A stretch of 64,000 nucleotides of DNA from the NCBI GenBank assembly GCA_963749445.1, contig CAVVMJ010000010.1, forward strand, positions 181,738 to 245,737. The letters are read 5' to 3'. The notes under the pieces were generated by a model that was not told the origin of the DNA, did not search any database, and worked only from the letters and a program-made list of their open reading frames with translations. Positions within the stretch are counted from its first letter, which is position 1, and each line of letters begins with the position of its first letter. Of the stretch, positions 1 to 62,172 are shown in pieces. The translations under genes were made by a program, and so were the position numbers. Source of the stretch: an uncultured bacterium. Its GTDB lineage: Bacteria > Patescibacteriota > Doudnabacteria > UBA920.

Positions 1-56
1 GTTGTCCTTCATGCTTCTCTTTGATTTGGCGATTTGGGCTTGTGTGGCCATTTTAT

Positions 57-130: not shown

Positions 131-138
131 TTGCAGAA

Positions 139-5730: not shown

Positions 5731-5739
5731 AATGTTTAT

Positions 5740-5872
5740 CTCCAACCACCTCCCCCGCCTGCGGCGGGTACTCCTCCTTAAAAAGGAGGAGAGCTCCGCG
5801 GTATTGCGGATAACTGCGGAGCTTCCCTCCTGCCAAGGAGGGATGTCCCGCAAAGCGGGACGGGGTGGTTGT
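5740..5872. repeat. R1 GC-rich modular hairpin repeat, A-spacer-B palindromic pair
   Basis: CTCCAACCACCTCCCCCGCCTGCGGCGGGTACTCCTCCTTAAAAAGGAGGAGAGCTCCGCGG ... GCGGAGCTTCCCTCCTGCCAAGGAGGGATGTCCCGCAAAGCGGGACGGGGTGGTTG; same modules as copies at 12315, 16248, 29219, 30712, 37884, 40021, 50671, 51806. Confidence 0.85.
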
Positions 5873-5886
5873 TAAATGTTAAATGT

Positions 5887-7902: not shown

Positions 7903-7972
7903 AAGCTTTTAGCGATTAGCGATTAGCCAGCAAAACTGTATGGCTAAATGCTACTTGCTAAACGCTAAATGC
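7903..7972. repeat. H1 spacer hairpin between rplD and rplC
   Basis: GCTTTTAGCGATTAGCGATTAGCCAGCAAAACTGTATGGCTAAATGCTACTTGCTAAACGCTAAATGC. Confidence 0.8.
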
Positions 7973-7976
7973 TTGC

Positions 7977-9483: not shown

Positions 9484-9615
9484 ACAAACAGCACCATTTC
9501 TTAAACTCACGGCCGTGAGTTTAAGAAACCTGCGATCAAATGGAATGATGGCAAAATCCGCCAGGCTCATATCTCCCATATACTGGAGCATAAAAAATAC
9601 TAACTCTCTCGAACT

Positions 9616-9672
9616 GGATCCCGGATATTTTTTGCGGCTTATGATGTTCATCAGCGCAAAAAATCCGGGATG
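9616..9672. repeat. R3 hairpin repeat (GGATCCCGGATATTTTTTGCGGC...GCGCAAAAAATCCGGGATG)
   Basis: one of four copies (also 13307..13372, 58813..58870, 62041..62172); causes the spurious look-alike ORFs 9481..9720 and 58670..58903. Confidence 0.8.
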
Positions 9673-9823
9673 GACACATGTGTAGTTAGCCCGATTTTCT
9701 GGGCTGCCCAAATATCTCACAGCCGATAAATCGGCTAACTACGGGCTTAAATAGCCAAAAGGACTACCCTTTCAAGGATAGTCCTTTGTCTGTGTTAATC
9801 CGTTATCAATCCGTGTTTATCTT

Positions 9824-12303: not shown

Positions 12304-12314
12304 ATGGATTATGC

Positions 12315-12374
12315 GCGGAGCATCCTCCCCTGCCAAGGGGAGGTGTCCCGCGAAGCGGGACGGAGGGGTTGGAG
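12315..12374. repeat. R1 terminal inverted repeat (B orientation) abutting stop codon of DUF559 gene
   Basis: GCGGAGCATCCTCCCCTGCCAAGGGGAGGTGTCCCGCGAAGCGGGACGGAGGGGTTGGAG ends at 12374; gene stop begins at 12375. Confidence 0.85.
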
Positions 12375-12725
12375 TCAACCAAGATTTTTCTTAATCTCCT
12401 GTAACACTCCTTCTAAATTTTTTATGACATCCTTATTTTCAAATCTTATAACTTTTATATTCAGCCTTTGTAAATATTCGGTTCTATTTTCATCTTTGGC
12501 GTAACCTTGTTCGGAATCATGAGGACTGCCGTCAAGTTCAACGGCAAGCTTCTTATCGGCGCAATAAAAATCTACAATATACCTGCCAATACCGTGTTGC
12601 CGGCGAAATTTATGGCCCAATTGCTTATTTTTTAAATGATTCCAGAGCCTGGCTTCGGCTGGCGTTAAATGCTTTCTTAAGTCTTTTCTGTAATTTTTCA
12701 GACCGATGATGTTGTTTAACCTCAT
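12375..12725 (-). CDS. DUF559 domain protein (Vsr-like / PD-(D/E)xK endonuclease fold)
   Basis: 116 aa; LTPAEARLWNHLKNKQLGHKFRRQHGIGRYIVDFYC...ELDGSPHD motif set; about 65% identical to 29279..29635; framed exactly by R1 inverted repeats. Confidence 0.7.
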   Translation of the reverse strand: MRLNNIIGLKNYRKDLRKHLTPAEARLWNHLKNKQLGHKFRRQHGIGRYIVDFYCADKKLAVELDGSPHDSEQGYAKDENRTEYLQRLNIKVIRFENKDVIKNLEGVLQEIKKNLG

Positions 12726-12789
12726 ACTCCAACCCCCCTCCCGCCGCTTTGCGGCAGACTCCCCCTTAACAGGGGGAGATGCTCCGCGG
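12726..12789. repeat. R1 terminal inverted repeat (A orientation) abutting start codon of DUF559 gene
   Basis: CTCCAACCCCCCTCCCGCCGCTTTGCGGCAGACTCCCCCTTAACAGGGGGAGATGCTCCGCGG begins one base after the ATG (12725); its GGAG sits in Shine-Dalgarno position. Confidence 0.85.
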
Positions 12790-13229: not shown

Positions 13230-13306
13230 CCCAGCCGAGCATCATCGCAACACATGGGCGAGAGCCGGGATCCAGTTACCGGCTCAAATACTGTATACCG
13301 ATTCTG

Positions 13307-13372
13307 GGCCCCGGATATTTTTTGCGGCCTGCGATAACCATCAGCGCAAAAAATTCCGGGGTGGAAACTATT
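13307..13372. repeat. R3 hairpin repeat copy
   Basis: GGGCCCCGGATATTTTTTGCGGCCTGCGATAACCATCAGCGCAAAAAATTCCGGGGTGG. Confidence 0.75.
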
Positions 13373-16131: not shown

Positions 16132-16247
16132 AAAAAATTAGTTTTTAGATATTAGTTGTTAGGTTTTAGGTTTTAGGTTTTACATTGTGCAGCGGAAAAG
16201 TATATACTTCGGTATATACAAAATTTTCAAAGTTCTTTTGCAAATCC

Positions 16248-16393
16248 GCGGAGCTTCCCCTCCTTCCCTCCTTGCTGAGGAGGGGTGGATCGCGTTAGCG
16301 AGACGGGGTGGTATTTATCCGCAAAGACTCCAACCACCTCCCCCCTCGACTTCGCTCGGGGTACTCCTCCTTAAAAAGGAGGAGAGGCTCCGC
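16248..16393. repeat. R1 repeat, B-spacer-A pair (gene-less derivative of the DUF559 element)
   Basis: GCGGAGCTTCCCCTCC...GGAGGGGTGGATCGCG...GACGGGGTGGTATTTATCCGCAAAGACTCCAACCACCTCCCCCC...TACTCCTCCTTAAAAAGGAGGAGAGGCTCCGC; between fusA and rpsG. Confidence 0.85.
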
Positions 16394-16438
16394 AGTTGTC
16401 CGTCTCAGTCCGTTCCCAGTCCGTAACAGTCCGCGTAC

Positions 16439-17053
16439 CTATCTCCGCCCAAACCTCGCAAAATGCGCAAACGCCTTATTGGCCTCTGCCATCCTGTGCA
16501 CGTCTTCTCTCTTCTTTATGGCTGCACCGGTGCGGTTGTAGGCGTCCATAATTTCTCCGGCCAATTTTTCCTTCATGGGCGCGCCTTTTTTGGCCCTGGC
16601 CGCGGCCAACAGCCAGCGGATGCCGAGCGTGGTCTTGCGCGGCTCCTGAACTTCCATCGGCACCTGATAGTTAGCCCCGCCGATTCTGCGGGATTTTAAC
16701 TCCATCATCGGGGCGACGTTTTTTAACGCGATATCAAATACCGCTCGGCCGTCCAACTTTTGCGGTGCCGCTGATTTTTGCGGAACTGCAGTATTCCCCT
16801 CCTTTTTAAGGAGGGGCGTCTGCGCAGCAGACGGGGTGGTTGGAGATTTGACTGAAACAGCAACCGGAGCCGCCACGGGCATCGCGGCCATTTTTTTCTC
16901 CACAATCTCCAAAGCGTCGTAAAAAATCCTGCGCGCCACGTTTTTCTTGCCGCGCTGCATCAAATAATTTATAAATTTGGCATACTTGACCGAGCCGAAT
17001 TTCGGGTCCGGCAAAGGCACGTGTTTGTCGTAGCTCCTTGATTTTCTGGGCAT
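16439..17053 (-). CDS. rpsG: 30S ribosomal protein S7 with about 46 aa in-frame insertion partly encoded by an R1 half-repeat
   Basis: 204 aa versus about 156 typical; N-terminal (PRKSRSYDKHVPLPDPKFGS) and C-terminal (KKREDVHRMAEANKAFAHF) S7 blocks flank AMPVAAPVAVSVKSPTTPSAAQTPLLKKEGNTAVPQKSAAPQKLDG. Confidence 0.9.
   Translation of the reverse strand: MPRKSRSYDKHVPLPDPKFGSVKYAKFINYLMQRGKKNVARRIFYDALEIVEKKMAAMPVAAPVAVSVKSPTTPSAAQTPLLKKEGNTAVPQKSAAPQKLDGRAVFDIALKNVAPMMELKSRRIGGANYQVPMEVQEPRKTTLGIRWLLAAARAKKGAPMKEKLAGEIMDAYNRTGAAIKKREDVHRMAEANKAFAHFARFGRR
16801..16864. repeat. R1 half-repeat (B) inside rpsG coding sequence, in frame
   Basis: GGAACTGCAGTATTCCCCTCCTTTTTAAGGAGGGGCGTCTGCGCAGCAGACGGGGTGGTTGGAG. 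Confidence 0.85.
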
Positions 17054-17055
17054 GG

Positions 17056-17130
17056 TTTTAGCTTTTAGCGATTAGCTTTTAGCGATTAGCCAGCCATGTC
17101 TGGCTAAATGCTAACTGCTAAATGCTAACT
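17056..17130. repeat. H1 spacer hairpin (TTAGCG/GCTAAA tandem-repeat arms)
   Basis: TTTTAGCTTTTAGCGATTAGCTTTTAGCGATTAGCCAGCCATGTCTGGCTAAATGCTAACTGCTAAATGCTAA; copies also at 57..130, 1587..1670, 7903..7972, 17553..17632. Confidence 0.8.
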
Positions 17131-17136
17131 TCTTGT

Positions 17137-17550
17137 TTACTTCTTCTTGGCTCCATACTTAGACCGAGAGCGTTTCCGACCGTCAACGCCTAATGTGTCC
17201 AATTTCCCTCTGATGATATGATAGCGCACGCCGGGCAAATCTTTTACCCTGCCGCCGCGGATCATCACCACACTGTGTTCCTGTAAGTTGTGGCCGATGC
17301 CCGGAATATAGGCAATCACTTCCATGCCGTTGGTGAGTTTGACTTTGGCGACTTTGCGCAAAGCCGAGTTCGGCTTTTTGGGCGTGGTGGTATAAACCTT
17401 AAGGCACACGCCACGCATAAACGGCGCGCCTTTGGCAATCCACAAGGTGCGGTTTTTGATTAAGTTGACGCGGCGCAACAAAGCCGGAGCCTTGCTTTTG
17501 GCCTGTAAACTGTGCCTGCCGTGCCTGACTAACTGGTTGATTGTGGGCAT
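17137..17550 (-). CDS. rpsL: 30S ribosomal protein S12
   Basis: 137 aa; [12 protein letters not shown]...[14 protein letters not shown]...[11 protein letters not shown] canonical S12. Confidence 0.9.
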
Positions 17551-17552
17551 TT

Positions 17553-17632
17553 CGTTAGCTTTTAGCGTTTAGCGATTAGCGATTAGCCAGCCATGTTTGG
17601 CTAAAAGCTAACTGCTAAATGCTAAATGCTTT
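17553..17632. repeat. H1 spacer hairpin upstream of rpsL
   Basis: TTCGTTAGCTTTTAGCGTTTAGCGATTAGCGATTAGCCAGCCATGTTTGGCTAAAAGCTAACTGCTAAATGCTAAATGC. Confidence 0.8.
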
Positions 17633-17862
17633 AACGGATTAAACTTGAATAAGCAATAAAAAAGCCGACAAAAGATGTCAGATCTTCTGCTTTCGCCTGC
17701 TTGGTACTCATCAGAAACCTATTGATGTCGGCCGGTGGCCTGCTTCCCAAAACCTGCGACTAAAAAATAGTGATTCGCCGCTCGCGCGGCGGGTTTCTTA
17801 TTCAATTAAAAGAATTATATACCAAGCTTGCAAAAAAGTCAACATTTAGATAATGTTATTTT

Positions 17863-18172: not shown

Positions 18173-18213
18173 GCCGCGCCCTGAACGCATCACTGGGGCG
18201 CGGCATTTCTTTT
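18173..18213 (+). terminator. intrinsic terminator
   Basis: GCCGCGCC ctgaacgcatcact GGGCGCGGC ATTTCTTTT. Confidence 0.5.
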
Positions 18214-18353
18214 AGCAAATCCACGGAGTTTCTCCCCTCTTGACCCATTCGGCAAAGCTCAGGGTCACCCCGAGCTTATCGAGGTGGTGAGGGGAGATGC
18301 CGAAGTAGCAACGAGGCAGAGAGGTTGCATTCAAACCCGACACTCCTTTTTTA

Positions 18354-18737
18354 TCATCTCTGGCACCCCTCAATATTCTTATCCACGTCGTTATTCCAAA
18401 ACTGTAAAACTTTATACCCCTGTTCTTTGGCATAATCCCGTTTGGTCAAATCATAGTCAGAAACCTTTTGCTCGCTATGCTGTCCTCCGTCAAGTTCAAT
18501 CAGTAACATTTTTTCACGGCAGCTGAAATCAAAAATATATGAACCAACCTGCACCTGACGCTTAAATTTTAAATGATAAAACCGCCCGGCGCGCAGGCGG
18601 CTCCATAGCTTGGTTTCCCAAGGTGTTTGGTTTTTGCGGAGATTTTTTGAGTTTGTTAAAAAAGGTTCAGGGATTATGCGATTTTCCATATATTCTGCAA
18701 CCTCTCTGTCTAAAATTTTGGCCGATGATGAACCCAA
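18354..18737 (-). CDS. DUF559 domain protein (third, more divergent copy)
   Basis: 127 aa; HLKFKRQVQVGSYIFDFSC...ELDGGQH pattern parallels the other two; flanked only by R1 fragments (18751..18782 and 18252..18300). Confidence 0.65.
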   Translation of the reverse strand: MGSSSAKILDREVAEYMENRIIPEPFLTNSKNLRKNQTPWETKLWSRLRAGRFYHLKFKRQVQVGSYIFDFSCREKMLLIELDGGQHSEQKVSDYDLTKRDYAKEQGYKVLQFWNNDVDKNIEGCQR

Positions 18738-18822
18738 ACAAAATTTTAGACATCTCTCCTCAAAAGGAGAGAAGCTCCGCGGAAAACCCTTTCGTCATCC
18801 CAATCGGCGACCAATCACTGAT

Positions 18823-23256: not shown

Positions 23257-25065
23257 TTAATGGCCGAAAAATCCTCTGGCTAAACTGTCCGGCAATAAAC
23301 AAAGGCTGATGTTTTTATCTTTGCAAAACTTTTTAATTTCAGGGTCGCGCACACTGCCGCTTGTGGCTATTATAGCACAAATCCCGGCTTTTGCCAAAAC
23401 TTCCACCCCGTCCACGAACGGGAAAAAACTGTCGCTGTAGGCCACCGCGCCTTTGGTTTGATGTCCCGCGTCCAGGGCCCGTTTGATGGCCAACTGGCAG
23501 CAGCCGACTCTGTCCTGCTGCCCCACACCGTTGCCGATTAACATCCCGTCTTTGACCAAAGTGACAGTGTTGCTGTTGCTGGTGGAACCGATTGCCCAGG
23601 CCAAAAGCATATCGGATTTTTGCTGATCGGATAATTTGCCGATAAACTCCGGCCGAGGGTTCCCCTCGGTTTCCGAACGGCTCCGGTCCGAGGGGAACCC
23701 TCGGGTCAAATCCAAAACAAAATCATAATTCGGCTGGGCCAAAAACCCGCCGCGCACATAACGGAACCGACGATGGCTATCCGGCGAGTTTTTTGACAGA
23801 TTCCCCAGCGCGGGGTTTACCAAAAACCGGCACTTGTCGCCTTTGCGTTTTAACATTCTGACCGCTCCTTCGGTAAAGGATGGAGCAATAATCCCATCAA
23901 GCAACCTCCGCGGCTTGCCCGCCGAAGCTTCAGCGAAGGTGGGAGCTTTCCCCTCCTTTTCAAGGAGGGGTCCGGCCGAAGGCCGGGGGGTGGTTGGAGC
24001 CATCCGATGTGTAAGCAATATTTCCGCCAATTTTTCGTCAACCAAAAAATTTACCATCACCAGCCCGCCAAAAATCGCGCGCAAATCCCCTTCCAGCATT
24101 TTTTGGATGGCCGATGACGGCGTATCGGAAACCGCCGCACCGCACGGGTTGCCGTGCTTTACCCCCAAAGCTATATTCATTATTCCCTTCCCCCTCTGGG
24201 GGAAGGTGGCCGTGAGGCGGCCGGATGAGGGTTTTATTACGGATTGCAACAAAGTGGGATTGCAGTCAAACCCTGCCGCAATGTGCGTTATGGTCTGCAG
24301 CAATCTGTCCACGTCCGCCCAGTTGTTGTAACTTACCGGCATGCCGGCCAATAATCGGAATTTCGATAGCGATAATTCATCACTATCTGAAATCGCATAC
24401 AATCCCGCCGGCGTCTGGCATGCATTCTCGCCATATTTACAAATTGCGGCGCGGTGACCAACCATTCCTTCGTATTCGCCCGCTCCGTGATAGCGCGCGG
24501 ACGACAAACAGTACTCCGCCACAATAAATTCCGCTTTAGCTGCAAGCTGGTCCAAAAATTTTTCTTTATCAGGCTTGCCGTTTTTTAACCAGCTGATGAC
24601 TGCCACCCTGTCGTCCGGATCACAAACGACGATTCTTCTTCCCTTGGCCGCGCTCCGGAGCATTGTCGGCCCGCCAATGTCAGTCTTTTCGATAACAGCT
24701 TCCCTGGCCTTTGCCGATCCGACTTCCGATTTTCCGATTTTTCCGATTTCTTCCGACAACGGATACAAATCCACGCACACCAAATCTATCCACGGGATTT
24801 TTAATCGATTTAATTCCTGCCGATCTTCATCGGTATCCCGCGCCAAAAGCCCGGCGTGGACTTCGCGCGACAACGTGACTACGCGATGACCCAAAATCGC
24901 CTTACCGCCGGCCAAAGAAGCCACATCAGTCACTTTAATTCCTGCGTCTGACAAAGCTTTGGCTGTCCCTCCGCTCGCCAAAATTTTAAATCCCAAATCC
25001 GCCAACTCTTTGGCAAATTCCACAATCCCGTCTTTATTATAAACCGAAATCAGTGCGGTTTTCAT
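23257..25065 (-). CDS. purH: bifunctional AICAR transformylase / IMP cyclohydrolase, with several in-frame repeat-encoded insertions
   Basis: 602 aa; N-terminal MGS-like domain (MKTALISVYNKDGIVEFAKELADLGFKILASGGTAKAL) and AICARFT domain; about 80 aa longer than typical because of insertions at 23653..23706, 23941..24000, 24170..24235, 24711..24760. Confidence 0.9.
   Translation of the reverse strand: MKTALISVYNKDGIVEFAKELADLGFKILASGGTAKALSDAGIKVTDVASLAGGKAILGHRVVTLSREVHAGLLARDTDEDRQELNRLKIPWIDLVCVDLYPLSEEIGKIGKSEVGSAKAREAVIEKTDIGGPTMLRSAAKGRRIVVCDPDDRVAVISWLKNGKPDKEKFLDQLAAKAEFIVAEYCLSSARYHGAGEYEGMVGHRAAICKYGENACQTPAGLYAISDSDELSLSKFRLLAGMPVSYNNWADVDRLLQTITHIAAGFDCNPTLLQSVIKPSSGRLTATFPQRGKGIMNIALGVKHGNPCGAAVSDTPSSAIQKMLEGDLRAIFGGLVMVNFLVDEKLAEILLTHRMAPTTPRPSAGPLLEKEGKAPTFAEASAGKPRRLLDGIIAPSFTEGAVRMLKRKGDKCRFLVNPALGNLSKNSPDSHRRFRYVRGGFLAQPNYDFVLDLTRGFPSDRSRSETEGNPRPEFIGKLSDQQKSDMLLAWAIGSTSNSNTVTLVKDGMLIGNGVGQQDRVGCCQLAIKRALDAGHQTKGAVAYSDSFFPFVDGVEVLAKAGICAIIATSGSVRDPEIKKFCKDKNISLCLLPDSLARGFFGH
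23941..24000. repeat. R1 half-repeat (B) in frame inside purH
   Basis: GGGAGCTTTCCCCTCCTTTTCAAGGAGGGGTCCGGCCGAAGGCCGGGGGGTGGTTGGAG encodes APTTPRPSAGPLLEKEGKAP. Confidence 0.8.
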
Positions 25066-28521: not shown

Positions 28522-29218
28522 CGATTGCCCTCCTTGGCAACTGGATCCCTCTTCTGCATCAGCAAAAGAGGATACTACACCGCACAACGACGGCCTTAGA
28601 ATTGGACGGGTCAGGGCTTATCCCAATCTTTCCCATGCTCTCAACCGTACTTGGTCGTGAACTGAATCGGGACATGCCCTAATCAGACATTACATCCACG
28701 ATCGTTCCGCAATTGAGCACATTTGCCAACTTGGTAAGTCGGCGGGAAAAACTGAGCACCCCTTTTCTCGGAGAATGAGGTATTATTGCATCCGAGCCTT
28801 TGACCCGTAATCTTTTGAGCATTGCTGCTCAGAAAATTTTATCCAATTCTTTTAGATAAAAATTCCTAAGCACCATCCTCTGCCCAACAAAATACCTAGC
28901 CTTCTCGTTTTGGCTAGGTTGGTGTTTGTTCTAAATTCCGTTTAACTTTTTCCCCTTCAAACCCCACCTAGCCCGTCCCAAACATAGCCCTTAACAAAAA
29001 GGACCGGGCGGACGACAATGGTGGTGGAAAGGTTTTTATACATTCTTGTACTGGTTAACTGATACAAGTATACAACAAACTGGCAAATTGTCAATATATT
29101 TATAAATTTGGCTTAAATAAAAGACTAATTTTATATGATGGCGTAATACTTAATGAAAATTTATTGGTTATCCCCAATCACGAACAATATATTCGGCTAT
29201 CCTGTTATTCGGTTATAC

Positions 29219-29278
29219 GCGGAGCTTCCCCTCCTGCCAAGGAGGGGTGTCGCGCGAAGCGTGACGGGGTGGTTGGAG
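29219..29278. repeat. R1 terminal inverted repeat (B) abutting stop of DUF559 gene
   Basis: GCGGAGCTTCCCCTCCTGCCAAGGAGGGGTGTCGCGCGAAGCGTGACGGGGTGGTTGGAG. Confidence 0.85.
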
Positions 29279-29635
29279 TTATTGCAAATGTTTCCCGATT
29301 TCAGCCAACACCCCTTCTAAATTTTTAATTACATCGCCGTTTTGAAAACGGATAACCTTTATGCCTTTGCTCTCCAAATATCTTGCGCGTTCCTGGTCTT
29401 TTGTGTAGCCCTGTTCCGTATCGTGAGGCGAACCATCAAGTTCTATGGCTAATTGCCTGCTTGGGCAATAAAAGTCCAGGATATAATAACCAATGCCGTG
29501 CTGCCGCCTGAATTTTACTCCCAATTGGTTATTCTTGAGATGCACCCAAAGTCTGGCTTCTGCCGGGGTTAAATGCTTGCGTAGTTCTTTCCGGTTATTT
29601 TTTGAGCCTATTAGATTATTCAACCTATCAGTCAT
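29279..29635 (-). CDS. DUF559 domain protein (Vsr-like endonuclease fold), second intact copy
   Basis: 118 aa; LTPAEARLWVHLKNNQLGVKFRRQHGIGYYILDFYC...ELDGSPHD; framed exactly by R1 inverted repeats as at 12375..12725. Confidence 0.7.
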   Translation of the reverse strand: MTDRLNNLIGSKNNRKELRKHLTPAEARLWVHLKNNQLGVKFRRQHGIGYYILDFYCPSRQLAIELDGSPHDTEQGYTKDQERARYLESKGIKVIRFQNGDVIKNLEGVLAEIGKHLQ

Positions 29636-29698
29636 GCTCCAACCCCCTCCCCCGCCTTCGGCGGGTACTCCCCCTTGACAGGGGGAGAGGCTCCGCGG
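29636..29698. repeat. R1 terminal inverted repeat (A) abutting start of DUF559 gene
   Basis: GCTCCAACCCCCTCCCCCGCCTTCGGCGGGTACTCCCCCTTGACAGGGGGAGAGGCTCCGCGG. Confidence 0.85.
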
Positions 29699-30655: not shown

Positions 30656-30711
30656 GGATTATTTTTTAAGATTTACTATAGTGAATCTGCTTTTCAGATG
30701 CACGGATATCC

Positions 30712-30840
30712 GCGGAGCTCCCCTCCTAATATAGGAGGGGTGTCCTGCGAAGCGGGACGGGGTGGTATTATCTGTGCCGGTATTTTACCACCTCCCCGCC
30801 CTGCGGGCGGTACTCCTCCTTTTCAGGAGGAGAGTACTGC
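30712..30840. repeat. R1 repeat B-spacer-A pair (gene-less)
   Basis: GCGGAGCTCCCCTCCTAATATAGGAGGGGTGTCCTGCGAAGCGGGACGGGGTGGTATTATCTGTGCCGGTATTTTACCACCTCCCCGCCCTGCGGGCGGTACTCCTCCTTTTCAGGAGGAGAGTACTGCAG. Confidence 0.85.
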
Positions 30841-30886
30841 AGCCGATAAATCGGCACGCTACACTAAAGCGTATGCCCCGCACAAG

Positions 30887-36532: not shown

Positions 36533-39500
36533 TTAAACCACAAAATTTATTAAGCGGTCAGGCACAAAAATCACCCGCCTGATATTTTGGGTTCCGACGA
36601 TTGCCACAGCCTGCTGTTTAACTTGATTCTCATCGCTTCCCGGCGACACCGTAATGCGGCCTTTGACTTTGCCGTTGACCTGCACCACGATTTCAATTGT
36701 GGCGTCAACGATTTTTGCCGGGTCAAACGCCGGCCAGCTTTCCAGCTGGAGCGATTTTTTGCCTCCGATGATTGAATTTAGTTCTTCTGCCAGATGCGGC
36801 GCGAACGGATGTAACAATTTTAGAAAAATTTTAAAATCTTCCTTCGAAATATTTTGGCCAAAAGCTTGAATATTTTTTAAATTTAAATATTTTTCAAACT
36901 TTGGATCTTTTGATTTAATCATTTCTTCTCGGGTAATATAAATTTCGTTCATAAACACCATAAGACCGGATACGCAGGTGTTAAATCGAAAATTTTCTAT
37001 ATCCTCTTCGACTTTTTTTATAGTTTTATTCAAAGCTTTCTCAACTTGTCCGTCAGTAAAATTCATTACATCGTTATCTTCCATCGCCTTTAGACTTAAA
37101 CCGACCTGATATACCTTATCCAAAAATCTTTTGACCCCGACTACGCTTTTGTCGTTCCAGGCGATGGTGTCCTCGTGCGGACCCAAAAACAACTCAAACA
37201 TGCGCAACGTGTCCGCGCCGTGCGAGGCTACAATATCCTGCGGATTGACCACGTTGCCGCGGCTTTTGGACATTTTTTCGCCGTCCGCAGCCAAAATTAT
37301 GCCGTGAGGCACGCGTTTAACATACGGCTCCCTTGATGTAACCAATCCTTGATCAAACAAAAATAAATTCCAAAACCGGCTGTAAAGCAAATGCAAAGTC
37401 GTGTGCTCCATGCCGCCAAAATAAACGTCCACCGGCGTCCAGTATTTTTGTTTGCTGATGGACGCGAATTCTTTTTTGTCTTTTGGATCGATATACCTTA
37501 ACCAATACCAACTGCTACCTGCCCATTGCGGCATAGTGTTGGTTTCTCTTTTTGCCGGCGATTTGCAATTCGGACATTTTACATTAACCCAGTTTGATAT
37601 TGCGGCCAATGGCGATTCTCCTGTTCCTGTCGGCTGGTAATTTTTGACCGGCGGGAGTTTTACCGGCAAATCCTTTTCGGCTACCTCCACAATACCGCAT
37701 TTTGGGCAATGAATAATCGGAATCGGCTCGCCCCAGTAGCGCTGGCGGGAAAATACCCAATCACGGAGTTTATACTGGACAGTCGCTCTGCCGAATTTTG
37801 CTGCCATTTTGGGAATTGCATCTTCTGACTTCATTCCGGTAAATTCACCGGAATTAATCAAAGCACCATAATCCGCAACGGCTCCGACCACCTCCCCGCC
37901 TGACGGCGGTACTCCCCCTTGAAAAGGAGGAGAGCTCCGCGTGACATCCGAGAATAACTGCAGAGCTTCCCCTCGCTTCTTTAAGGAGGGGTGGACGCGA
38001 AGCGAACGGGGTGGTTGGAGACACAACTTGCTTAATTGGTAAACCGTATTTCTTCGCAAACTCAAAATCCCGCTCATCATGCGCCGGCACGGCCATAATC
38101 GCGCCGGTGCCATAACCCCAAAGCACGTAATCCGCCGCCCAAATCGGGATTTCTTCTTTTGTTGCAGGATTAATCGCCTTAATACCTTTTAACTCCACTC
38201 CGGTTTTTTCCTTACCTTCTGATGAACGATCCATTTCCGATTTTTTCTTTGCCTTTTCTACATATTCCTCAACTTCTTTGTAATTTGATCCGCCTTGGCG
38301 GATGAAATTTTCTGTCAACGGATGTTCCGGTGCCACCACCATATATGTCGCGCCGAAGATAGTGTCCGGCCGCGTGGTAAAAACTTTGATTAACGGCAAG
38401 ACGGCGGCCAAAACTTCCGGTTCTTGCTCGGCGCGAAAATGAACCAGTTGCCCTGCTTTTCTAGTGATAGGCGCGTTCAAAACTTCCGACAGTTGGGCAG
38501 CTTGATCGTCGGAAATTGCATCGTCGTTGGGATCATGTAAAATTGTAATTGAACCGGCTTTATTTTTAATCGCCGAAAAATCAAAACTCCATTTAAAATT
38601 TTTTTGAAAAGGCCTGGGTGGTCTTTAAAATTTGGGCTGACAAAACCGCCGACCAATACCAGTCCAGCGATTTTTGCCTGTAATTTTTCCAGAACTTTCA
38701 TCGCCACCACCGTTCCCAAACTATGGCCGACTAAAATTGTATTTTCGCCAAAACGGCAATTTTTCAAAACAAAATTAACCTGCGCTTCTTCACTGGGATT
38801 AGTCGGATTCGGCAAGGCCGGTATATCCACTTTCATACCTTTAAATTCCAATTGGCTTTTTAGCCAAGGATAGAATCTGGTTTCCGGCGTTTCATTCCAA
38901 CCGTGCAAAATTACGTAATTATGTTTTGCGTTTAGGGTAAAATTAATTTCCGCGCCCACAGACTTGCCAATCCAGTTTTCCTGTTGGAGCTTAACCGCTT
39001 CCGGCCACTCGGGCAGATGTTTTAATCCTTCCAAAAGTTTTTCCGCATACGCAGTAATTCTTAAATACCACTGGCGCAATTCTTTTTTTTCAACGACTGT
39101 GCCGCAGCGCTCGCATTTGCCGTCTATGACTTCTTCGTTAGCCAAACCGGTTTTGTCTTTCGGACACCAATTAATCAAACCTGTTGCCTCGTAGGCCAAT
39201 CCTTTTTTAAAGAATTGCAAAAACAGCCATTGTGTCCATTTATAATAATTCGGGTCTGTGGTATTTATTTCCCGCGACCAATCAAAACTTAAACCCCACG
39301 ACTGCATTTGTTTTTTGGCATTTTTGATATTTTTCGCCGTGGTTACCGCGGGCTGGACGCCTTTTTTATGGCATAATTTTCCGCCGGCAAACCAAACGCG
39401 TCCCAGCCGATGGGAAACATAACCTCATAGCCCCGCATACGATGATAACGAGCATAAACATCCGCGGCCACGTACGGCCGCAAATGCCCCATATGCAAAC

Positions 39501-39639
39501 CCTCGCCGCTGGGATATGGAAATTCCACTAAAACATATTTTTTCGGCTTTTTGGCAAAATCCGCGGCCTGAAAAATTTTCTTGGTTTGCCAAACCTTTTG
39601 CCACTTGGCCTCAATTTTTTTGTGATTATACTTTTCCAT
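36533..39639 (-). CDS. leuS: leucyl-tRNA synthetase with an embedded YdeN-type serine-hydrolase domain and an R1-repeat insertion; reading frame broken by about three apparent frameshifts
   Basis: ORFs 39343..39639 (HMGH), 38477..39307, 37854..38480 ([24 protein letters not shown] editing motifs) and 36533..38113 (KMSKS: EKMSKSRGN; anticodon-binding and C-terminal domains) are collinear with LeuS; junctions at A6 (39351), T7 (about 38605) runs and inside the R1 element. Confidence 0.85.
37884..38030. repeat. R1 repeat A-spacer-B pair inside leuS coding sequence
   Basis: CCGACCACCTCCCCGCCTGACGGCGGTACTCCCCCTTGAAAAGGAGGAGAGCTCCGCG...GAGCTTCCCCTCGCTTCTTTAAGGAGGGGTGGACGCGAAGCGAACGGGGTGGTTGGAG; encodes [20 protein letters not shown]... 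in the same relative frame as the TatD copy. Confidence 0.85.
38420..38932 (-). other. YdeN/RBBP9-type alpha/beta serine hydrolase domain embedded in LeuS between the WIGKS motif and the CP1 editing domain
   Basis: [24 protein letters not shown]...[18 protein letters not shown]...LVGGFVSP...[11 protein letters not shown]...QLVHF aligns along its length with B. subtilis YdeN (YIIHGY...WFPWLKKRL...YLVAHSLGCPA...ILVSGF...SKDDQIVPF...HGGHF): Ser-Asp-His triad conserved. Confidence 0.7.
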
Positions 39640-39691: not shown

Positions 39692-40666
39692 TCAGATGTT
39701 AAATAGTTTTTTTGCATTTTTGGTCGTCGATTCCGTAACTTCTTTAATTGACAAACCTTTTATCTCCGCAACCTTATCGGCCACAAACCTTACATAGCTC
39801 GGCTCGTTTCTTTTGCCTCGATGAGGCGCCGGCGATAAATACGGGCAATCGGTTTCCAGTAAAATTTTATCAAGCGGCGCGAGTTTTACCAACTTTTCCA
39901 TATTGCCGGTTTTGTCAAATGTGATTATTCCGTTAAAGCTGACATACGCGCCGCGGTCGAGGAATTTTTGGAGATATTCTGGACTTCCCGTGTAACTGTG
40001 CACCTCAAACCTCAAACCGGCTCCAACCCCCTCCCCGCCCTTCGGGCGGTACTCCCCCTTGTCAGGGGGAGAGGCTCCGCCTATATCCTCGGTCAACTGC
40101 GGAACTTCCCCTCCTGCCAAGGAGGGGTGTCCCGCGGAGCGGGACGGGGTGGTTGGAGTTTTTTCCTCATCAAGTATCTCCAGTAAATCATCATAAAGCG
40201 ACTCATCACCTTTTGCCGGGCGACTGTGGACTACTAAAACTTTATTTAATTCTTTTGCTAATTTCACTTGCTCCCGAAATGCAGCTTTTTGTTTATCTTT
40301 GACTTGCTGATGGTCGCCATCCGCAGGAAACCGATAATAATCCAGCCCGCACTCCCCTATCCCGACAACTTTCGGGTTTGTCGCTATACTTTGGTATAGC
40401 GCTTCGTCAAAATGCTCTTCGCGGGTAAGAAAATGCGTTTCTTCTTCATCAACGTATTGGGAATGGGTATGCTCGGGATGCAAACCGACAACCGCGTAAA
40501 TCCCCTCTTTAAATTGATTAGCCAATTCCACGGCCTCTCGTGACGTGTCTATTTGCGACCCGACGTTTATGACCCAAGTATCATTATCAAGCGCCCGCTG
40601 CAAAGCTTCTTTGGCATCGCCCTTAAACGCGCGAAAATTCACGTGAGCGTGGGTGTCAATCAACAT
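39692..40666 (-). CDS. tatD: TatD family hydrolase with about 50 aa in-frame insertion encoded by an R1 pair
   Basis: MLIDTHAHVNF, GIGECGLDYYR, VVHSR, ETDCPYL motifs; 324 aa versus about 260 typical. Confidence 0.85.
   Translation of the reverse strand: MLIDTHAHVNFRAFKGDAKEALQRALDNDTWVINVGSQIDTSREAVELANQFKEGIYAVVGLHPEHTHSQYVDEEETHFLTREEHFDEALYQSIATNPKVVGIGECGLDYYRFPADGDHQQVKDKQKAAFREQVKLAKELNKVLVVHSRPAKGDESLYDDLLEILDEEKTPTTPSRSAGHPSLAGGEVPQLTEDIGGASPPDKGEYRPKGGEGVGAGLRFEVHSYTGSPEYLQKFLDRGAYVSFNGIITFDKTGNMEKLVKLAPLDKILLETDCPYLSPAPHRGKRNEPSYVRFVADKVAEIKGLSIKEVTESTTKNAKKLFNI
40021..40158. repeat. R1 repeat A-spacer-B pair, in frame inside tatD
   Basis: CTCCAACCCCCTCCCCGCCCTTCGGGCGGTACTCCCCCTTGTCAGGGGGAGAGGCTCCGC ctatatcctcggtcaactgc GGAACTTCCCCTCCTGCCAAGGAGGGGTGTCCCGCGGAGCGGGACGGGGTGGTTGGAG; encodes KTPTTPSRSAGHPSLAGGEVPQLTEDIGGASPPDKGEYRPKGGEGVGAG. 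Confidence 0.9.
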
Positions 40667-40690: not shown

Positions 40691-42304
40691 TTATGAATCG
40701 ATGCGGGGAAATAACCGTGGGATATTTTCCAATTTCGGATCTTTCAAAACCTTATCCGCCTTCGCTAAAGCTTCGGCGGATGGCCCGCTATTTATTAAAT
40801 TAAGGTGGGCCAAAATCTTTTCGCTGGTTTGAGGAAGGAAGGGAATTAAATCGGTTGCGATTTTGTGCAGCTCCGACAGCAGATATTGTATATCTTTCAC
40901 TGCTTTTTCTTTGTCAGTTTTTATAACTTTAAAGGGCTCGCTTTTCTGGATAAATTCGTCACAGGCTTTTATTTTTTGCCAAATTTGGTCCAAGGCTTTT
41001 TGGAACTGATAGCTATCCATAAATAATTTTAACCCCTCTGCCTCGGATGCACTCGGCATCTCCCCATGAATTGGGGAGAATAATATTGAGTTGGCTCTAG
41101 CCATCTTTAAAATCCTGCTGGTCAAATTCCCCAAGCCGTTGGCCAAGCCGGCGTTATAGCTTTCCACGAACTTTTCCCAGGTATAGTCGCCGTCTTCAAA
41201 GGTGGAAATTTCGCGGAGCAAAAAATAACGCAAGGCGTCTATAGCCTGCTCGTTGGTAAGGCCTTTGGATTTTAATTTGTCGATAATTTGATATGGGTCG
41301 GCCACATTGCCCAAAGATTTGGACATTTTTTGCCCGCCGCTGTTAATGAAGCCGTGGATAATGATTTGCTTGGAATTCGGCAGGCCGGCGGACATTAGCA
41401 TCGCCTGCCACATTGCCGATTGCTGCCTGAGATTGTCCTTACCCGCGATTTGGATGGCATTCGGATGCTCGTGAGTTCCCCAGAAATCGGGGAATCGGAG
41501 GTCGGATGAATCGGAGGTCGGAGCAGTATCCGATTTTCCGATTTTCCGATTTTCCGATCTATCCGATTCAGGCCAGCCCAAAGTTGAAACGTAATTTATC
41601 AGCGCGTCAAACCAGACGTACATTACGTGATCTTCGTCCTCCGGCACGGGCACGCCCCAAGGCATTTTTGATTTTAATCGCGATATGGAAAAATCGTGCA
41701 GGCCGGATTTTACAAACTGCTTAATTTCATTAAAGCGGAAATCCGGCACCACAAACTCGGGATTTTTTTCGTAAAACTCCAAAAGCGGCTGTTGGTAGCG
41801 GGAAAACCGGAAAAAATAATTTTCTTCGTCAATCAGTTCAATTCGCAAATGCGGGTGGATTAGGCACTGGCCGTCTCCGTTCAAATCGCTTTCCGTTTTT
41901 TCCAGCTCGCAGCCCACGCAGTATTTAACTTTATAAATTTTCTTATAAATATCACTCTTGTTAAAACATCTTTTCCAAAACTCCCGGCTGGCGGCAATGT
42001 GGTGCTTGTCCGTAGTGCGGATAAAATGGATGCCCGATGAAATGCCCAAAGCCGGCATCAACTGCCTAAACTTATCCGCGTACTCATCAACATAACTCTG
42101 GATATCCTTGCCGGTACTTCGCGCCTTGGCATAAACTTTTTGCCCGTGTTCGTCCGTGCCGGTATTAAAAAACACGTCCTGCTTTAACACCTCCTTGTGG
42201 TAACGGGCAATGGCATCGGCCTGGACCATTTCCAAAGCAAACCCAAGGTGCGGGTCAGCATTCACATAAGGCAGGGTGGTGGTGATGTAAAATTTATCGG
42301 GCAT
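40691..42304 (-). CDS. metG: methionyl-tRNA synthetase with two in-frame repeat-encoded insertions
   Basis: 537 aa; PYVNADPHLGFA (HIGH-type), KMSKSLGN; insertions at 41031..41101 (R2 hairpin) and 41487..41570 (TTTTCCGAT micro-repeats). Confidence 0.9.
   Translation of the reverse strand: MPDKFYITTTLPYVNADPHLGFALEMVQADAIARYHKEVLKQDVFFNTGTDEHGQKVYAKARSTGKDIQSYVDEYADKFRQLMPALGISSGIHFIRTTDKHHIAASREFWKRCFNKSDIYKKIYKVKYCVGCELEKTESDLNGDGQCLIHPHLRIELIDEENYFFRFSRYQQPLLEFYEKNPEFVVPDFRFNEIKQFVKSGLHDFSISRLKSKMPWGVPVPEDEDHVMYVWFDALINYVSTLGWPESDRSENRKIGKSDTAPTSDSSDLRFPDFWGTHEHPNAIQIAGKDNLRQQSAMWQAMLMSAGLPNSKQIIIHGFINSGGQKMSKSLGNVADPYQIIDKLKSKGLTNEQAIDALRYFLLREISTFEDGDYTWEKFVESYNAGLANGLGNLTSRILKMARANSILFSPIHGEMPSASEAEGLKLFMDSYQFQKALDQIWQKIKACDEFIQKSEPFKVIKTDKEKAVKDIQYLLSELHKIATDLIPFLPQTSEKILAHLNLINSGPSAEALAKADKVLKDPKLENIPRLFPRIDS
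41031..41101. repeat. R2 hairpin repeat in frame inside metG
   Basis: CCCCTCTGCCTCGGATGCACTCGGCATCTCCCCATGAATTGGGGAGAATAATATTGAGTTGGCTCTAGCC; near-identical 3' part to intergenic copy 2293..2345. Confidence 0.8.
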
Positions 42305-42320
42305 AATAACTGCTTTTACT

Positions 42321-42414
42321 CCTACGAACTTACGAACGGAATCGAACTACGAACTCTTGGTGTTGCCTATATCAGTGCGCCCGTTCGTAGTTCGTAAATT
42401 TCGTAAGTTCGTAG
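42321..42414. repeat. H2 spacer hairpin (GTTCGTAA tandem-repeat arms), second copy
   Basis: CTACGAACTTACGAACGGAATCGAACTACGAAC...CGTTCGTAGTTCGTAAATTTCGTAAGTTCGTAGG; other copy 1081..1170 in rplX-rplN spacer. Confidence 0.8.
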
Positions 42415-42477
42415 GAATATATAAAAAGGCTATTTCTAGCCCTTTTATTATACAATTTATTAAGATTTTGGACAAAT

Positions 42478-50401: not shown

Positions 50402-51793
50402 TTAATAATGCTCTTTATAATATTTTAGCATATCTTCAAAATAATCGTAAGTGATGGCGGTGCGGATTTTTTTCATTAGGTTTAGATAAAAACGCAGGTT
50501 GTGCATTGTGGCCAGGCGGGTGCCGAGCTGTTCACCGGTGGCAAATAAATGCCGCAGATAAGATTTGGTGTGGTTTAAACACAAGTAGCAATCGCAAGTG
50601 TTGTCTATGGGGGTAAAATCTTCTTTGTATTTTTCCAGGCGGATGTCGATGGTTTGGTAGCCTTCTACAACTCCAACCCCCTCCCCCCGCTTCGCGGGAT
50701 ACTCCCCCTTGTCACCCCTCGACTCCGCTCGGGGTGACCCTGAGCGGTAGCCGAATGAGTCAGGGGGAGAGGCTCCGCGTTTGTTCGAGGATATACGCGG
50801 AGCTTCCCCTCCGAGCTTGGGAGGGGTGGCCGCGCCAGCGGCCTGTTCGACTTCGCTCAAGGCCGCCCTGAGCCCAGCCGAATGGGCGGACGGGGTGGTT
50901 GGAGTCGGAATATTTTTTGCCGCGATATAAAGCCTTCCATGCCTCGCCTCCCTTGTCGGAATAACGCAATCAAAAGTATCGCAGCCGCGCGCCGTACCCT
51001 GGACAATATCGTAAGGCGTGCCTACGCCCAAAAGATGTTTGGGTTTTTGTTCCGGCAAATGCGCTATTGACCACTCCACGGCTTTCATCATTTCTTCAAA
51101 CGGCTCGTCAACCGTGGCTACGCCGCCGATGGCAAATCCTTCAAAACCAAAATTCGCCATCGCTTGGGCGGAAATTTTACGCAAGTCCTCAAAATTCGAA
51201 CCCTGAACTATACCCCAAAGTTTTTGTCCGGAGTTGATGGGGTCGCCGTGCTTCATAATATTTAAATGTTCGCGGATGGCGCGCTCGGCCCAGCGGTTGG
51301 TCAGCTCCGTGGAGATTTTACTTTTTTCATACTCAAACGGCACGCCGGAAAAATCATCCAAAATTAAAGCGATGTCGCTGCCCAGGTTGGCCTGGATTTG
51401 AATGGATTTTTCCGGCGATAAAATTTCCTGTTTGCCGTCCAAATCAAAATTAAACAGCACCCCGGCTTCCATTACCTTTTTAAATTTTGCCAGTGATTGC
51501 ACCTGAAATCCCCCGCTGTCAGTAAATATCGGCCCTTTCCAGTTCATAAATTGGTGCAAGCCGCCGGCTTTATAAATCAGTGCGTCGCCCGGACGTTGCC
51601 ACAAGTGGTAAGTATTAGCGAGTATCATTTCCGCGCCCCAAAATTTTAACTCCTCGCTCGTAACCGACTTAACCGTCCCCCTCGTCCCAATAGGCAAAAA
51701 CGCCGGCGTATGCACATCCCCGTGCGCGGTATGTATTATGCCGTTTCTTGCGGCTGATGAGGAATCTTTTTTTTGGATGTCGAAATAAGGCAT
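50402..51793 (-). CDS. tgt: queuine tRNA-ribosyltransferase with 78 aa in-frame insertion encoded by an extended R1 element
   Basis: 463 aa versus about 375 typical; FLPIGTRGTVK, DSGGFQ, DCVIPTR, CDCYLC zinc site all present; insertion NIPTPTTPSAHSAGLRAALSEVEQAAGAATPPKLGGEAPRISSNKRGASPPDSFGYRSGSPRAESRGDKGEYPAKRGEGVGVVEG. Confidence 0.9.
   Translation of the reverse strand: MPYFDIQKKDSSSAARNGIIHTAHGDVHTPAFLPIGTRGTVKSVTSEELKFWGAEMILANTYHLWQRPGDALIYKAGGLHQFMNWKGPIFTDSGGFQVQSLAKFKKVMEAGVLFNFDLDGKQEILSPEKSIQIQANLGSDIALILDDFSGVPFEYEKSKISTELTNRWAERAIREHLNIMKHGDPINSGQKLWGIVQGSNFEDLRKISAQAMANFGFEGFAIGGVATVDEPFEEMMKAVEWSIAHLPEQKPKHLLGVGTPYDIVQGTARGCDTFDCVIPTREARHGRLYIAAKNIPTPTTPSAHSAGLRAALSEVEQAAGAATPPKLGGEAPRISSNKRGASPPDSFGYRSGSPRAESRGDKGEYPAKRGEGVGVVEGYQTIDIRLEKYKEDFTPIDNTCDCYLCLNHTKSYLRHLFATGEQLGTRLATMHNLRFYLNLMKKIRTAITYDYFEDMLKYYKEHY
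50671..50904. repeat. R1 repeat, extended A-X-B form, in frame inside tgt
   Basis: CTCCAACCCCCTCCCCCCGCTTCGCGGGATACTCCCCCTTGTCACCCCTCGACTCCGCTCGGGGTGACCCTGAGCGG...GAGGCTCCGCG...GCGGAGCTTCCCCTCCGAGCTTGGGAGGGGTGGCCGCGCCAGCGGCC...GGACGGGGTGGTTGGAG. Confidence 0.9.
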
Positions 51794-51805
51794 AAAGAAA
51801 TTGAT

Positions 51806-51956
51806 GCGGAGCCTCCCCTCCTATTCCAAGAATTTCATTAGAACATAGGAGGGGTGGATCGCGAAGCGAGACGGGGTGGTATATAAATTGCCGATAACTA
51901 CCACCTCCCCCGCCTGCGGCGGGTACTCCTCCTATTCTAGGAGGAGAAGCTCCGCG
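51806..51956. repeat. R1 repeat B-spacer-A pair immediately upstream of tgt
   Basis: GCGGAGCCTCCCCTCCTATTCCAAGAATTTCATTAGAACATAGGAGGGGTGGATCGCGAAGCGAGACGGGGTGGTATATAAATTGCCGATAACTACCACCTCCCCCGCCTGCGGCGGGTACTCCTCCTATTCTAGGAGGAGAAGCTCCGCG. Confidence 0.85.
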
Positions 51957-51971
51957 ATTTTGCTCATTAAC

Positions 51972-58749: not shown

Positions 58750-58812
58750 TGTCCATCCCGGCCGAGCCCAAGCATACAGGGCGAGAGACGGGACCCGAAA
58801 AAAAGCTTATAC

Positions 58813-58870
58813 CTGGATCCCGGATATTTTTACGGCTGATAATATTCAGGAACGTAAAAATTCCGGGATG
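58813..58870. repeat. R3 hairpin repeat copy downstream of recombinase gene
   Basis: GGATCCCGGATATTTTTACGGCTGATAATATTCAGGAACGTAAAAATTCCGGGATG. Confidence 0.75.
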
Positions 58871-58994
58871 ACAACTGAATATACGTCTGTATAAAACTAC
58901 CACTTTAAAAGCCCGTCTGGTTTTCCAAACGGGCTTTTAAGTTTGTTGACTCTTACTCATCTGTTTCTTATTACTGATTAATTATTGCCGATTA

Positions 58995-61992: not shown

Positions 61993-62040
61993 AGTCGTAT
62001 TTTAAATGATAAATATTTGATTTTAATATAGATGCCATCC

Positions 62041-62172
62041 CGGAATTTTTCAAGCTTGAGGATGTTTTCAGTCTTGAAAAATATCCGGGATCCAGATTTT
62101 TGCTTCTACTGGATCCCGGATATTTTTTACGGCTGCTGATATCCCAACGCGTAAAAAATTCCGGGATGACAA
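62041..62172. repeat. R3 hairpin repeat, tandem pair
   Basis: CCGGAATTTTTCAAGCTTGAGGATGTTTTCAGTCTTGAAAAATATCCGGGATCCAGATTTTTGC...GGATCCCGGATATTTTTTACGGCTGCTGATATCCCAACGCGTAAAAAATTCCGGGATG. Confidence 0.75.

Follow-up and report, generated by a model that had tools for sequence, protein, structure and literature searches.

Examining a 64-kb stretch of contig CAVVMJ010000010.1 from an uncultured Doudnabacteria genome (hereafter the window, i.e. the whole 64,000 nucleotides analysed), we characterized a palindromic repeat element that is translated in frame within conserved genes, namely those of a TatD-family hydrolase, ribosomal protein S7, PurH, Tgt and LeuS, as well as at ~20 further host sites in related genomes. 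This element is a coding repeat comparable to the Rickettsia palindromic elements (RPEs), of a new structural type and with a candidate partner nuclease of the DUF559 family. Its anatomy, the covariation between its parts, the statistics of its frame and orientation, the comparison of insertions with empty-site homologues and its association with DUF559 genes probably find their best overall explanation in a non-autonomous DNA repeat, resembling MITEs (transposable elements that are miniature and bear inverted repeats) and RPEs, that is made of two inverted ~60-nt modules and has DUF559 as its partner.

Element anatomy and insertion into permissive loops

The TatD gene (39692-40666, minus strand) is a 324-codon open reading frame (ORF) matching Pfam TatD_DNase PF01026 end to end (E = 1.5e-71). 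Its copy of the element (40021-40158, minus strand; 138 nt, i.e. 46 codons, in frame) encodes the peptide KTPTTPSRSAGHPSLAGGEVPQLTEDIGGASPPDKGEYRPKGGEGVGAG and is a full element of type A, with an R half, a centre and an L half in the sense of TatD. The R half (40098-40158, minus strand) comprises the terminus CTCCAACCACCCCG, hairpin 1 (GTCCCGC-TCC-GCGGGAC), hairpin 2 (CCCCTCCT-TGGC-AGGAGGGG) and GTTCCGCA, and the L half (40021-40082, plus strand) the terminus CTCCAACCCCCTCCCC, hairpin 1, hairpin 2 (CTCCCCCT-TGTC-AGGGGGAG) and GGCTCCGC. The whole is an imperfect palindrome of two ~60-nt halves that meet at GCTCCGCGG...CCGCGGAGC and end in the terminal inverted repeats CTCCAACCACC/GGTGGTTGGAG. 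Read from its terminus, a half runs CTCCAACC-ACC(CCG or TCCCC), hairpin 1, hairpin 2 and (A)GCTCCGCGG, where hairpin 1 is a 4-7-bp GC stem of variable sequence with a 3-4-nt loop and hairpin 2 is either CCCCTCCT-loop-AGGAGGGG or CTCCTCCT-loop-AGGAGGAG. The R and L subtypes are distinguishable, and both ends of the element read CTCCAACC 5'->3', each on its own strand.

At least 19 half copies lie within the window, in four settings: solo, as type A pairs with termini outwards, as type B pairs with termini inwards around an AT-rich spacer, and flanking small genes. A degenerate terminus-plus-hairpin pattern matched the window 8 times, against 0 matches in 100 shuffles. Scanning the window and nine loci with Rfam at gathering thresholds returned tRNAs only, leaving the repeat without an Rfam family. 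Integron attC sites were considered and set aside without a formal test, as CTCCAAC/GTTGGAG agrees imperfectly with RYYYAAC/GTTRRRY, the structure of the element has branches and an integrase was not observed.

Folded as single-stranded DNA, the TatD copy forms a five-way junction (-46.9 kcal/mol, z = -5.9, by nearest-neighbour folding, a model that does not include triplexes). Across the copies, the stems contain 920 Watson-Crick pairs vs 7 G-T and 6 A-C. This lack of strand asymmetry over ~930 pairs led us to reject an RNA-level structure in favour of a DNA structure; purine-motif triplexes, moreover, do not form in RNA (PMC4666352). The terminus mirrors the purine arm of hairpin 2, with G becoming C and A becoming A or T, and arm and terminus covary in at least five types (AGGAGGGG/ACCACCCC, AGGAGGAG/ACCACCTC, AGGGGGAG/ACCCCCTC, AGGGGAGG/ACCCCTCC and AGGGAAGG/ACCCTTCC). 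It follows that the complement of such a mirror terminus (e.g. GGGGTGGT) matches AGGAGGGG perfectly as an antiparallel third strand of the purine motif. The match between arm and terminus is perfect in 157 of 250 copies vs 16% in mismatched-pair controls, and the three-block halves are compatible with the triplets G·G-C and T·A-T or A·A-T. Each ~60-nt half accordingly has the architecture of an intrastrand-triplex motif of the BoxC/PIT/TMECO kind, with hairpin 1 in the place of a short second loop, and would adopt its triplex in vivo. The DNA segment read as PTTP is then fixed by a DNA-structural constraint, and since the hairpins and the mirror terminus pin the DNA sequence, the choice of frame fixes the peptide.

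Comparison with homologues showed that the element is an insertion in TatD. Solved TatD homologues, including the PDB entry 2gzx_A, lack the segment corresponding to residues ~164-221 of the window protein, and homologues at 65-81% identity, 278-283 aa long, display the empty site (LEILD..xxx..LRFEVHS). Other database TatD proteins carry the element or quite different inserts in the identical loop (~40000-40180 in the window); in two homologues (P0002 and P0038), the host LRFEVHS motif occurs twice, on either side of an additional insert. AlphaFold2 predicted the TatD TIM barrel confidently and placed the insert (residues 170-215) between helix 156-167 and strand 220-223, with a predicted local distance difference test score (pLDDT) of ~31.

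The TatD insertion recurs at the same site in four metagenome-assembled genomes (MAGs), independently assembled in different studies, and in many database proteins. These same-site copies, which are in frame and diverged, make it extremely unlikely that the insertions are assembly chimeras or sequencing errors, as three frameshifts in LeuS (one in an A7 run) and a repeat at contig ends in a Tannerellaceae MAG could have suggested. At orthologous sites, where the host proteins are 64-82% identical, hairpin 1 varies through changes that are compensated in full (CCCGC/GCGGG, CTCGC/GCGAG, CCGCC/GGCGG). Together with stems that are essentially never mismatched, this would fit copies retained for their use to the host, either as a DNA signal for recombination, replication or regulation or as a selected linker peptide. 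We nevertheless consider such a use unlikely, since perfect stems could also come from recent re-insertion or gene conversion among copies, the insert is modelled with very low confidence, and close TatD homologues without insert, next to others with unrelated inserts, point to turnover at a permissive site.

The four other host genes of the window, whose identities were confirmed by Pfam, also lie on the minus strand with their copies. Translation bore out the peptides and positions that a sequence-only reading of the window had reported for all five genes. Ribosomal protein S7 (16439-17053) contains a solo R half (16786-16845, peptide SPTTPSAAQTPLLKKEGNTA) within a ~40-residue insertion, residues ~59-99 being missing from solved S7 structures. 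PurH (23257-25065) contains another solo R half (23944-23999, peptide APTTPRPSAGPLLEKEGKAP). In Tgt (50402-51793), a full element of 234 nt (50671-50904) is read as TPTTPSAHSAG...GEYPAKRGEGVGV and bears a second small repeat nested in R hairpin 1 and in the loop of L hairpin 2. This nested repeat (…CTCGGGGTGACCCTGAGC-N4-GCCGAATGG…) is found in the Tgt copy at 50710-50765 and 50835-50890 and again in the repeat downstream of the third DUF559 gene described below (18215-18290), forming repeats within repeats.

The full element in LeuS (37882-38020, 139 nt) has both ends canonical relative to its flanks and a frame shift in its centre, so that its two halves are translated in different ORFs. LeuS as a whole (36533-39639) contains three frame breaks that leave four ORFs; the breaks are located in the A7 run near 39355, near 38480 and within the repeat, and we read them as sequencing errors or as a decaying gene, unrelated to the biology of the element. 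In one of these ORFs (38477-39307), an alpha/beta-hydrolase domain (Ser_hydrolase, PF06821) is inserted, separating the catalytic core from the editing domain.

Reading frame and orientation in host genes

Frame and orientation were surveyed in 30 blocks from six Doudnabacteria genomes and in the window. Halves were found with a profile built on the window copies, host frames were defined as stop-free over at least 150 codons with at least 25 on each side, and host proteins were clustered so that orthologous sites counted once. One frame dominates: a terminus read forward is entered as N^CT CCA ACC ACC (the caret marking the junction with the host), giving (T/A/S)PTT, in 24 of 26 copies and at 19 of 21 independent host sites (P = 8e-8 vs 1/3). 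The far end is read GTT GGA G^NN in this canonical frame, so that entry and exit together split the host codon after its first base. The frame that the sequence-only reading had recognized as shared by TatD, LeuS and PurH thus holds for all five hosts of the window (NCT-CCA-ACC-ACC) and widely beyond. The two exceptions (L012 and L015) read SNHPV... and belong to real genes, one for a membrane protein and one for a Dus-like enzyme. The sequence-only reading had also pointed out that one end is read as (T/S)PTTP in every host gene. As both ends read CTCCAACC, a CTCCAACC end comes first in either orientation.

Frame and orientation could in principle be random at insertion, with only the sole stop-free combination surviving. 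Stops do contribute: each of the two non-canonical frames has stops in 11 of the 16 full-length copies, for the most part in the GTT(A/G)AC centre or where the hairpin 2 loop begins with TGA/TAA. When each copy is given its present-day stop status, a conservative yet imperfect proxy for its state at insertion, the filter alone predicts 63% canonical copies vs the 90% observed (P(>=19/21) = 3e-4). Among intergenic R halves, each of the three forward frames is open in 7/11, and those within genes remain open in the two unused frames in 17/25 and 16/25 cases; in the TatD R half, none of the six frames contains a stop. Added to the two real genes that use another frame, and to an orientation bias of intergenic copies that stops leave unexplained, these figures make a pure stop filter an improbable account. 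The earlier suggestion that stop codons restrict the frame is right for part of the bias and insufficient for the rest.

The insertion target contributes as well. Flanks display a preference for WAA just outside the terminus (WAA^CTCCAACC). As regards the features of classical MITEs, the element has terminal inverted repeats, and no target-site duplication was seen in 56 aligned flanks. In long ORFs of the sampled genomes, 37% of WAA^ sites and 52% of WAA^TTW sites have their junction behind the first base of a codon, a phase bias too weak for target preference alone to set the frame. Combining the stop filter with the AT-rich target preference raises the canonical expectation to 66-74% (P(>=19/21) = 9e-4 to 0.014). 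These two causes account for much of the bias, and the modest excess left over suggests selection for a benign, linker-like peptide. In the canonical frame, P+G+S+T make up 0.57 of residues vs 0.40-0.41 in the other frames, hydrophobic residues 0.14 vs 0.21-0.24, and the net charge is near nil. Peptide lists inspected by eye also indicate that many intergenic L halves would give ...ALLLFKEEY... in the canonical register, a peptide that differs from the one read in most intragenic L halves.

Relative to the host gene, the R half is forward and the L half reverse at 23 of 26 sites (P = 4e-5). The constant orientation proposed from the window is consequently a real bias and not an invariant, as three copies in real genes (L020, L035 and L051) are exceptions. 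Neither frames nor orientations were used equally in the sampled blocks. Intergenic halves show the same polarity with respect to the local coding strand (20/21), so the bias is set at the DNA level and translation is not its cause. In the sampled genomes, nearly all genes of a block lie on one strand, which tracks GC skew, and the bias may reflect a replication-strand polarity of insertion. Strand-polar insertion tied to replication is known for single-strand transposons.

A mechanistic coupling of insertion to host translation, codon phase or transcription, the alternative raised by the sequence-only reading, would be consistent with the orientation bias relative to host genes and with an entry that always follows codon base 1. 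We judge it very unlikely. Intergenic halves have the same polarity and the coding strand tracks GC skew, so that replication-strand polarity explains the bias equally well, no codon-phase sensor is known at the DNA level, and the AT-rich target gives at most 52% phase 1. In addition, the host gene in L035 runs against the genes around it, and the element is oriented with those genes, not with the host; at the orthologous site in L059, the orientation is reversed. A reversed element still translates as TPTTSP...GVVG because the element is nearly palindromic.

DUF559 nuclease genes between element halves

Two small genes of the window are enclosed by element halves. The first unit (12312-12789, minus strand) consists of an L half (12727-12789), a DUF559 gene (12375-12725) and an R half (12312-12374), at the same position as the unit in the Doudnabacteria block L012. 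The second (29217-29698, minus strand; 482 bp) directly follows the parB stop, with an L half at 29637-29698, a DUF559 gene at 29279-29635 and an R half at 29216-29278. Both are arranged as ...L half...GGTTGGAG-N-ATG ... stop-CTCCAACC...R half.... Their 116-118-aa proteins match Pfam DUF559 (PF04480) with E-values of 1e-32 to 1e-34 (112-117 bits vs a cut-off of 20.6), as well as REase_MTES_1575 and the NCBIfam 'DUF559 domain-containing protein'. Residues D52, E63, G66 and H69 are invariant in 7 sequences (D...E-x-D-G..H pattern), and the DUF559/YcjD family has been predicted to be a Vsr-like PD-(D/E)XK nuclease (PMC1189080).

Four relatives, whose ParB proteins are 78-88% identical, lack both this 482-bp unit and the type B pair upstream of parB. 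The conserved downstream block directly follows parB in these genomes, a junction that provides an empty-site comparison for the whole unit. A third, divergent DUF559 gene (18354-18689) is set in a variant two-hairpin inverted repeat (18200-18810, minus strand), with GAGAGGTTGCA on one side and TGCAACCTCTC on the other. The terminus of this variant mirrors its own purine arm AGGAGAGA, giving by eye the third strand AGAGAGGT. No gene-less MITE copies of the variant repeat were seen in the window beyond the two flanking copies.

The association extends across phyla, with half-flanked DUF559 genes in loci of Doudnabacteria, Gammaproteobacteria, Burkholderiales and Tannerellaceae. Among 80 metagenomic DUF559 loci retrieved by protein alone, the profile motif lies within 200 nt of the gene upstream in 45/78 and downstream in 32/66, at a density of 2.8/kb within 200 nt vs 0.24/kb beyond, and the downstream copy begins within ~10 nt of the DUF559 stop in 24/36. 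A generic perfect-triplex pattern, never found in shuffles, adjoins 59 of the 80 genes (5.0/kb vs 0.30/kb farther off). Some of these genes have three tandem half motifs instead of one (L107, ~50-200; L117, ~570-760). The archetype of the family, E. coli ycjD, is accompanied by two BoxC-like copies, one that overlaps its stop and one ~170 nt downstream, an association at one locus that is suggestive only. At the same locus (K-12 NC_000913.3, 1351041-1351830; L174), a perfect 17-bp hairpin (TCACCTCATTCTGACAA…TTGTCAGAATGAGGTGA) stands directly upstream of ycjD, its 3' arm a few nt from the annotated start. The literature open to our search contained no link between DUF559 or ycjD and repeats.

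These associations suggest that the DUF559 nuclease is a candidate partner enzyme in the mobilisation, homing or maintenance of the repeats. In the mechanism that we propose, each module comprises, in order, hairpin 2 (pyrimidine arm, loop, purine arm), the variable GC hairpin 1 and the terminal segment, whose complement (GGGGTGGT) would act as an antiparallel third strand on the purine arm (AGGAGGGG). Modules exist solo, as type A pairs (the genic form), as type B pairs or around a ~115-aa DUF559 gene. Copies would land at AT-rich WAA^CTCCAACC sites with a fixed strand polarity independent of translation, and a copy in a gene would survive only where a surface loop is permissive, where its length is divisible by three and where its frame can be read. 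Three causes would underlie the dominant frame. The target preference favours an entry behind the first base of a codon, some copies carry stop codons in the alternative frames, and selection would retain the peptide most like a linker, with much Pro/Thr/Ser/Gly, few hydrophobic residues and a very low model confidence.

Several points weigh against this account. The census of frames and orientations was made on 8-kb blocks picked for an intact terminus, from six other MAGs and the window, with genes taken from long ORFs only. The most generous target model (WAA^TTW) combined with present-day stops leaves the canonical excess at only P = 0.014. Hairpin 2 is read in all three frames among intragenic copies (roughly 16:8:2, by eye), which a pure peptide-selection model might not predict. 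The triplex is deduced from sequence, and a catalytic or mobility role of DUF559 from gene context; we know of no PD-(D/E)XK nuclease that alone is a transposase. Finally, genic type A copies and the DUF559 unit have opposite topologies, with termini outwards in the former and inwards in the latter.

A bolder extension, which we put forward tentatively, is that DUF559 (YcjD-type) nucleases are the missing partners of BoxC/PIT-type triplex repeats. Units of ~480 bp in which inverted repeats enclose DUF559 would represent widespread, undescribed compact selfish elements, whose gene-less derivatives would have spread and colonised even essential genes of the Candidate Phyla Radiation (CPR). The nuclease, and not selection at the RNA level, would then keep up the perfect stems and the mirror terminus, for instance through nicking and repair directed by structure or mismatches.

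Outside genes, the window contains a full type A copy (5740-5875) that ends 9 nt ahead of the ATG of a minus-strand gene. This end (5733-5745) reads …GGTTGGAG, and the GGAG of the element could act as a ribosome-binding site for that gene. Type B pairs, made of an R half, an AT-rich spacer and an L half with their termini facing, occupy the rpsG/fusA intergenic region (16240-16395), the region upstream of parB (30709-30845) and the tgt/pnp intergenic region (51803-51957). These four features are listed without strand.

Beyond the window, whose TatD and ParB have their closest proteins in Doudnabacteria and Patescibacteria, a pattern scan of reference genomes yielded 93 blocks, ~30 of them from six Candidatus Doudnabacteria MAGs; of the Doudnabacteria insertions sampled, roughly two in three fall within long ORFs. 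The half motif (AACCACCCCG, hairpin, CACCCCTCCT, loop, AGGAGGGGA) is also present in Saccharibacteria, Burkholderiales, Gammaproteobacteria, Acidobacteriota, Planctomycetota and Verrucomicrobiota, and in many copies in a Tannerellaceae MAG. In the latter (TD116_bin28), it stands at the ends of many contigs (L038, L045, L080 and L082, positions ~30-100; L057, L066), suggesting a high-copy repeat that breaks the assembly.

Other repeats accompany the element. A distinct coding repeat family (CCCGCCGTCGCT…GGCGGGCAAGCCGCAG), which gives peptides like PAVAKALAGKPQ and TFAEASAGKPRR, adjoins R halves in PurH (23900-23943), L004 (6410-6480) and L074 (1945-2010). At least three more AT-richer palindromic families, of the TTAGC, GTTCGTAGTTCG and GGATCCCGGATATTTTTTGCGG types, are dispersed in the window (42-151, 1593-1688, 7904-7988, 17044-17148, 17541-17645; 1075-1172, 42320-42417; 9613-9676, 13303-13366, 58811-58874, 62033-62171). 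Tandem 8-nt TTCCGATT repeats within MetRS (41528-41568) and PurH (24724-24748), which leave both ORFs uninterrupted, look like a further kind of coding repeat.

Comparison with known repeat systems

At the level of the half, the closest resemblance is to BoxC/PIT/TMECO repeats (Hoyne et al. 2000; PMC4666352), with which the element shares a Y arm, an R arm and a G/T-rich third strand fitting the class II purine motif, a G/C-rich composition, a distribution across phyla and the frequent occurrence as inverted pairs of two subtypes. TMECO was reported to be always intergenic in E. coli (PMC4666352), whereas copies of the present element are also found within coding genes; no mobility-related genes were reported near TMECO (Holder et al. 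2015, PMC4666352), whereas the element flanks DUF559 genes. The loops also differ: loop 1 of the element is 4-6 nt long and loop 2 is a 13-19-nt hairpin with linkers, vs 1-6 nt in the intrastrand triplex-forming (ITxF) definition. A search based on that definition would miss the element because of its hairpin-sized loop 2. To our knowledge, neither an origin nor a partner enzyme has been described for BoxC/PIT triplex repeats, nor a function for DUF559. The cross-phylum linkage between DUF559 and the repeats, together with the empty site, makes both questions experimentally testable, including at E. coli ycjD/BoxC.

Similarities also exist with repetitive extragenic palindromic (REP) sequences and their REPIN-RAYT systems (PMC3733652), which likewise involve short palindromes, inverted doublets and a small gene between inverted copies of a dispersed repeat. 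Some copies of the intragenic GTAG/CGTC REPs lie in ORFs and are translated, and CGTC REPs have no dedicated transposase (Di Nocera et al. 2013, PMC3733652). In contrast to REPIN-RAYT, the product of the flanked gene is a Vsr-like PD-(D/E)XK nuclease instead of a Y1 (HUH) transposase, and there is no GTAG tag, this tetranucleotide being absent from the aligned halves. The CCCCGTC that precedes hairpin 1 in R halves, followed by the hairpin and a CCA-like tail, contains CGTC and is a resemblance only.

Vsr-like (EDxHD) homing endonucleases such as I-Bth0305I offer a further parallel, as a Vsr-fold nuclease encoded by a small selfish gene inside its own target. Enzymes of this type are associated with introns or inteins, occur in phages and have extra DNA-binding domains. 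The present DUF559 protein, a predicted nuclease, differs by being a minimal ~115-aa domain.

By its behaviour, the element is closest to RPEs, which are palindromic and occur both between genes and in frame within conserved genes of a small-genome bacterium (Ogata et al. 2000, reviewed in PMC2229807). Both are palindromes of 100-150 bp with terminal inverted repeats, both have intergenic and in-frame genic copies, and both add a peptide that the host protein tolerates. In-frame 'selfish DNA' in essential genes, a Rickettsia curiosity for 25 years, is thereby found in the CPR too. Protein segments such as TPTTPSRFAGHPSL...GGEVVG would be by-products of a DNA fold, and the element provides a clean system for studying how conserved enzymes and ribosomal proteins tolerate foreign sequence and why one frame wins. 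For annotation, such repeats mean that CPR gene models are inflated and fragmented, and assemblies can break at them. The element differs from RPEs in being hosted by CPR/Patescibacteria, in its presumably unrelated sequence and in its modularity, its triplex-type halves also occurring solo or in the opposite pairing and being accompanied by a candidate DUF559 partner, whereas no partner is known for RPEs. Its frame usage, moreover, has been quantified against a stop filter and a target model. As its host is a Patescibacteria genome, we treat the element as one that works like an RPE and do not count it as a member of that family.

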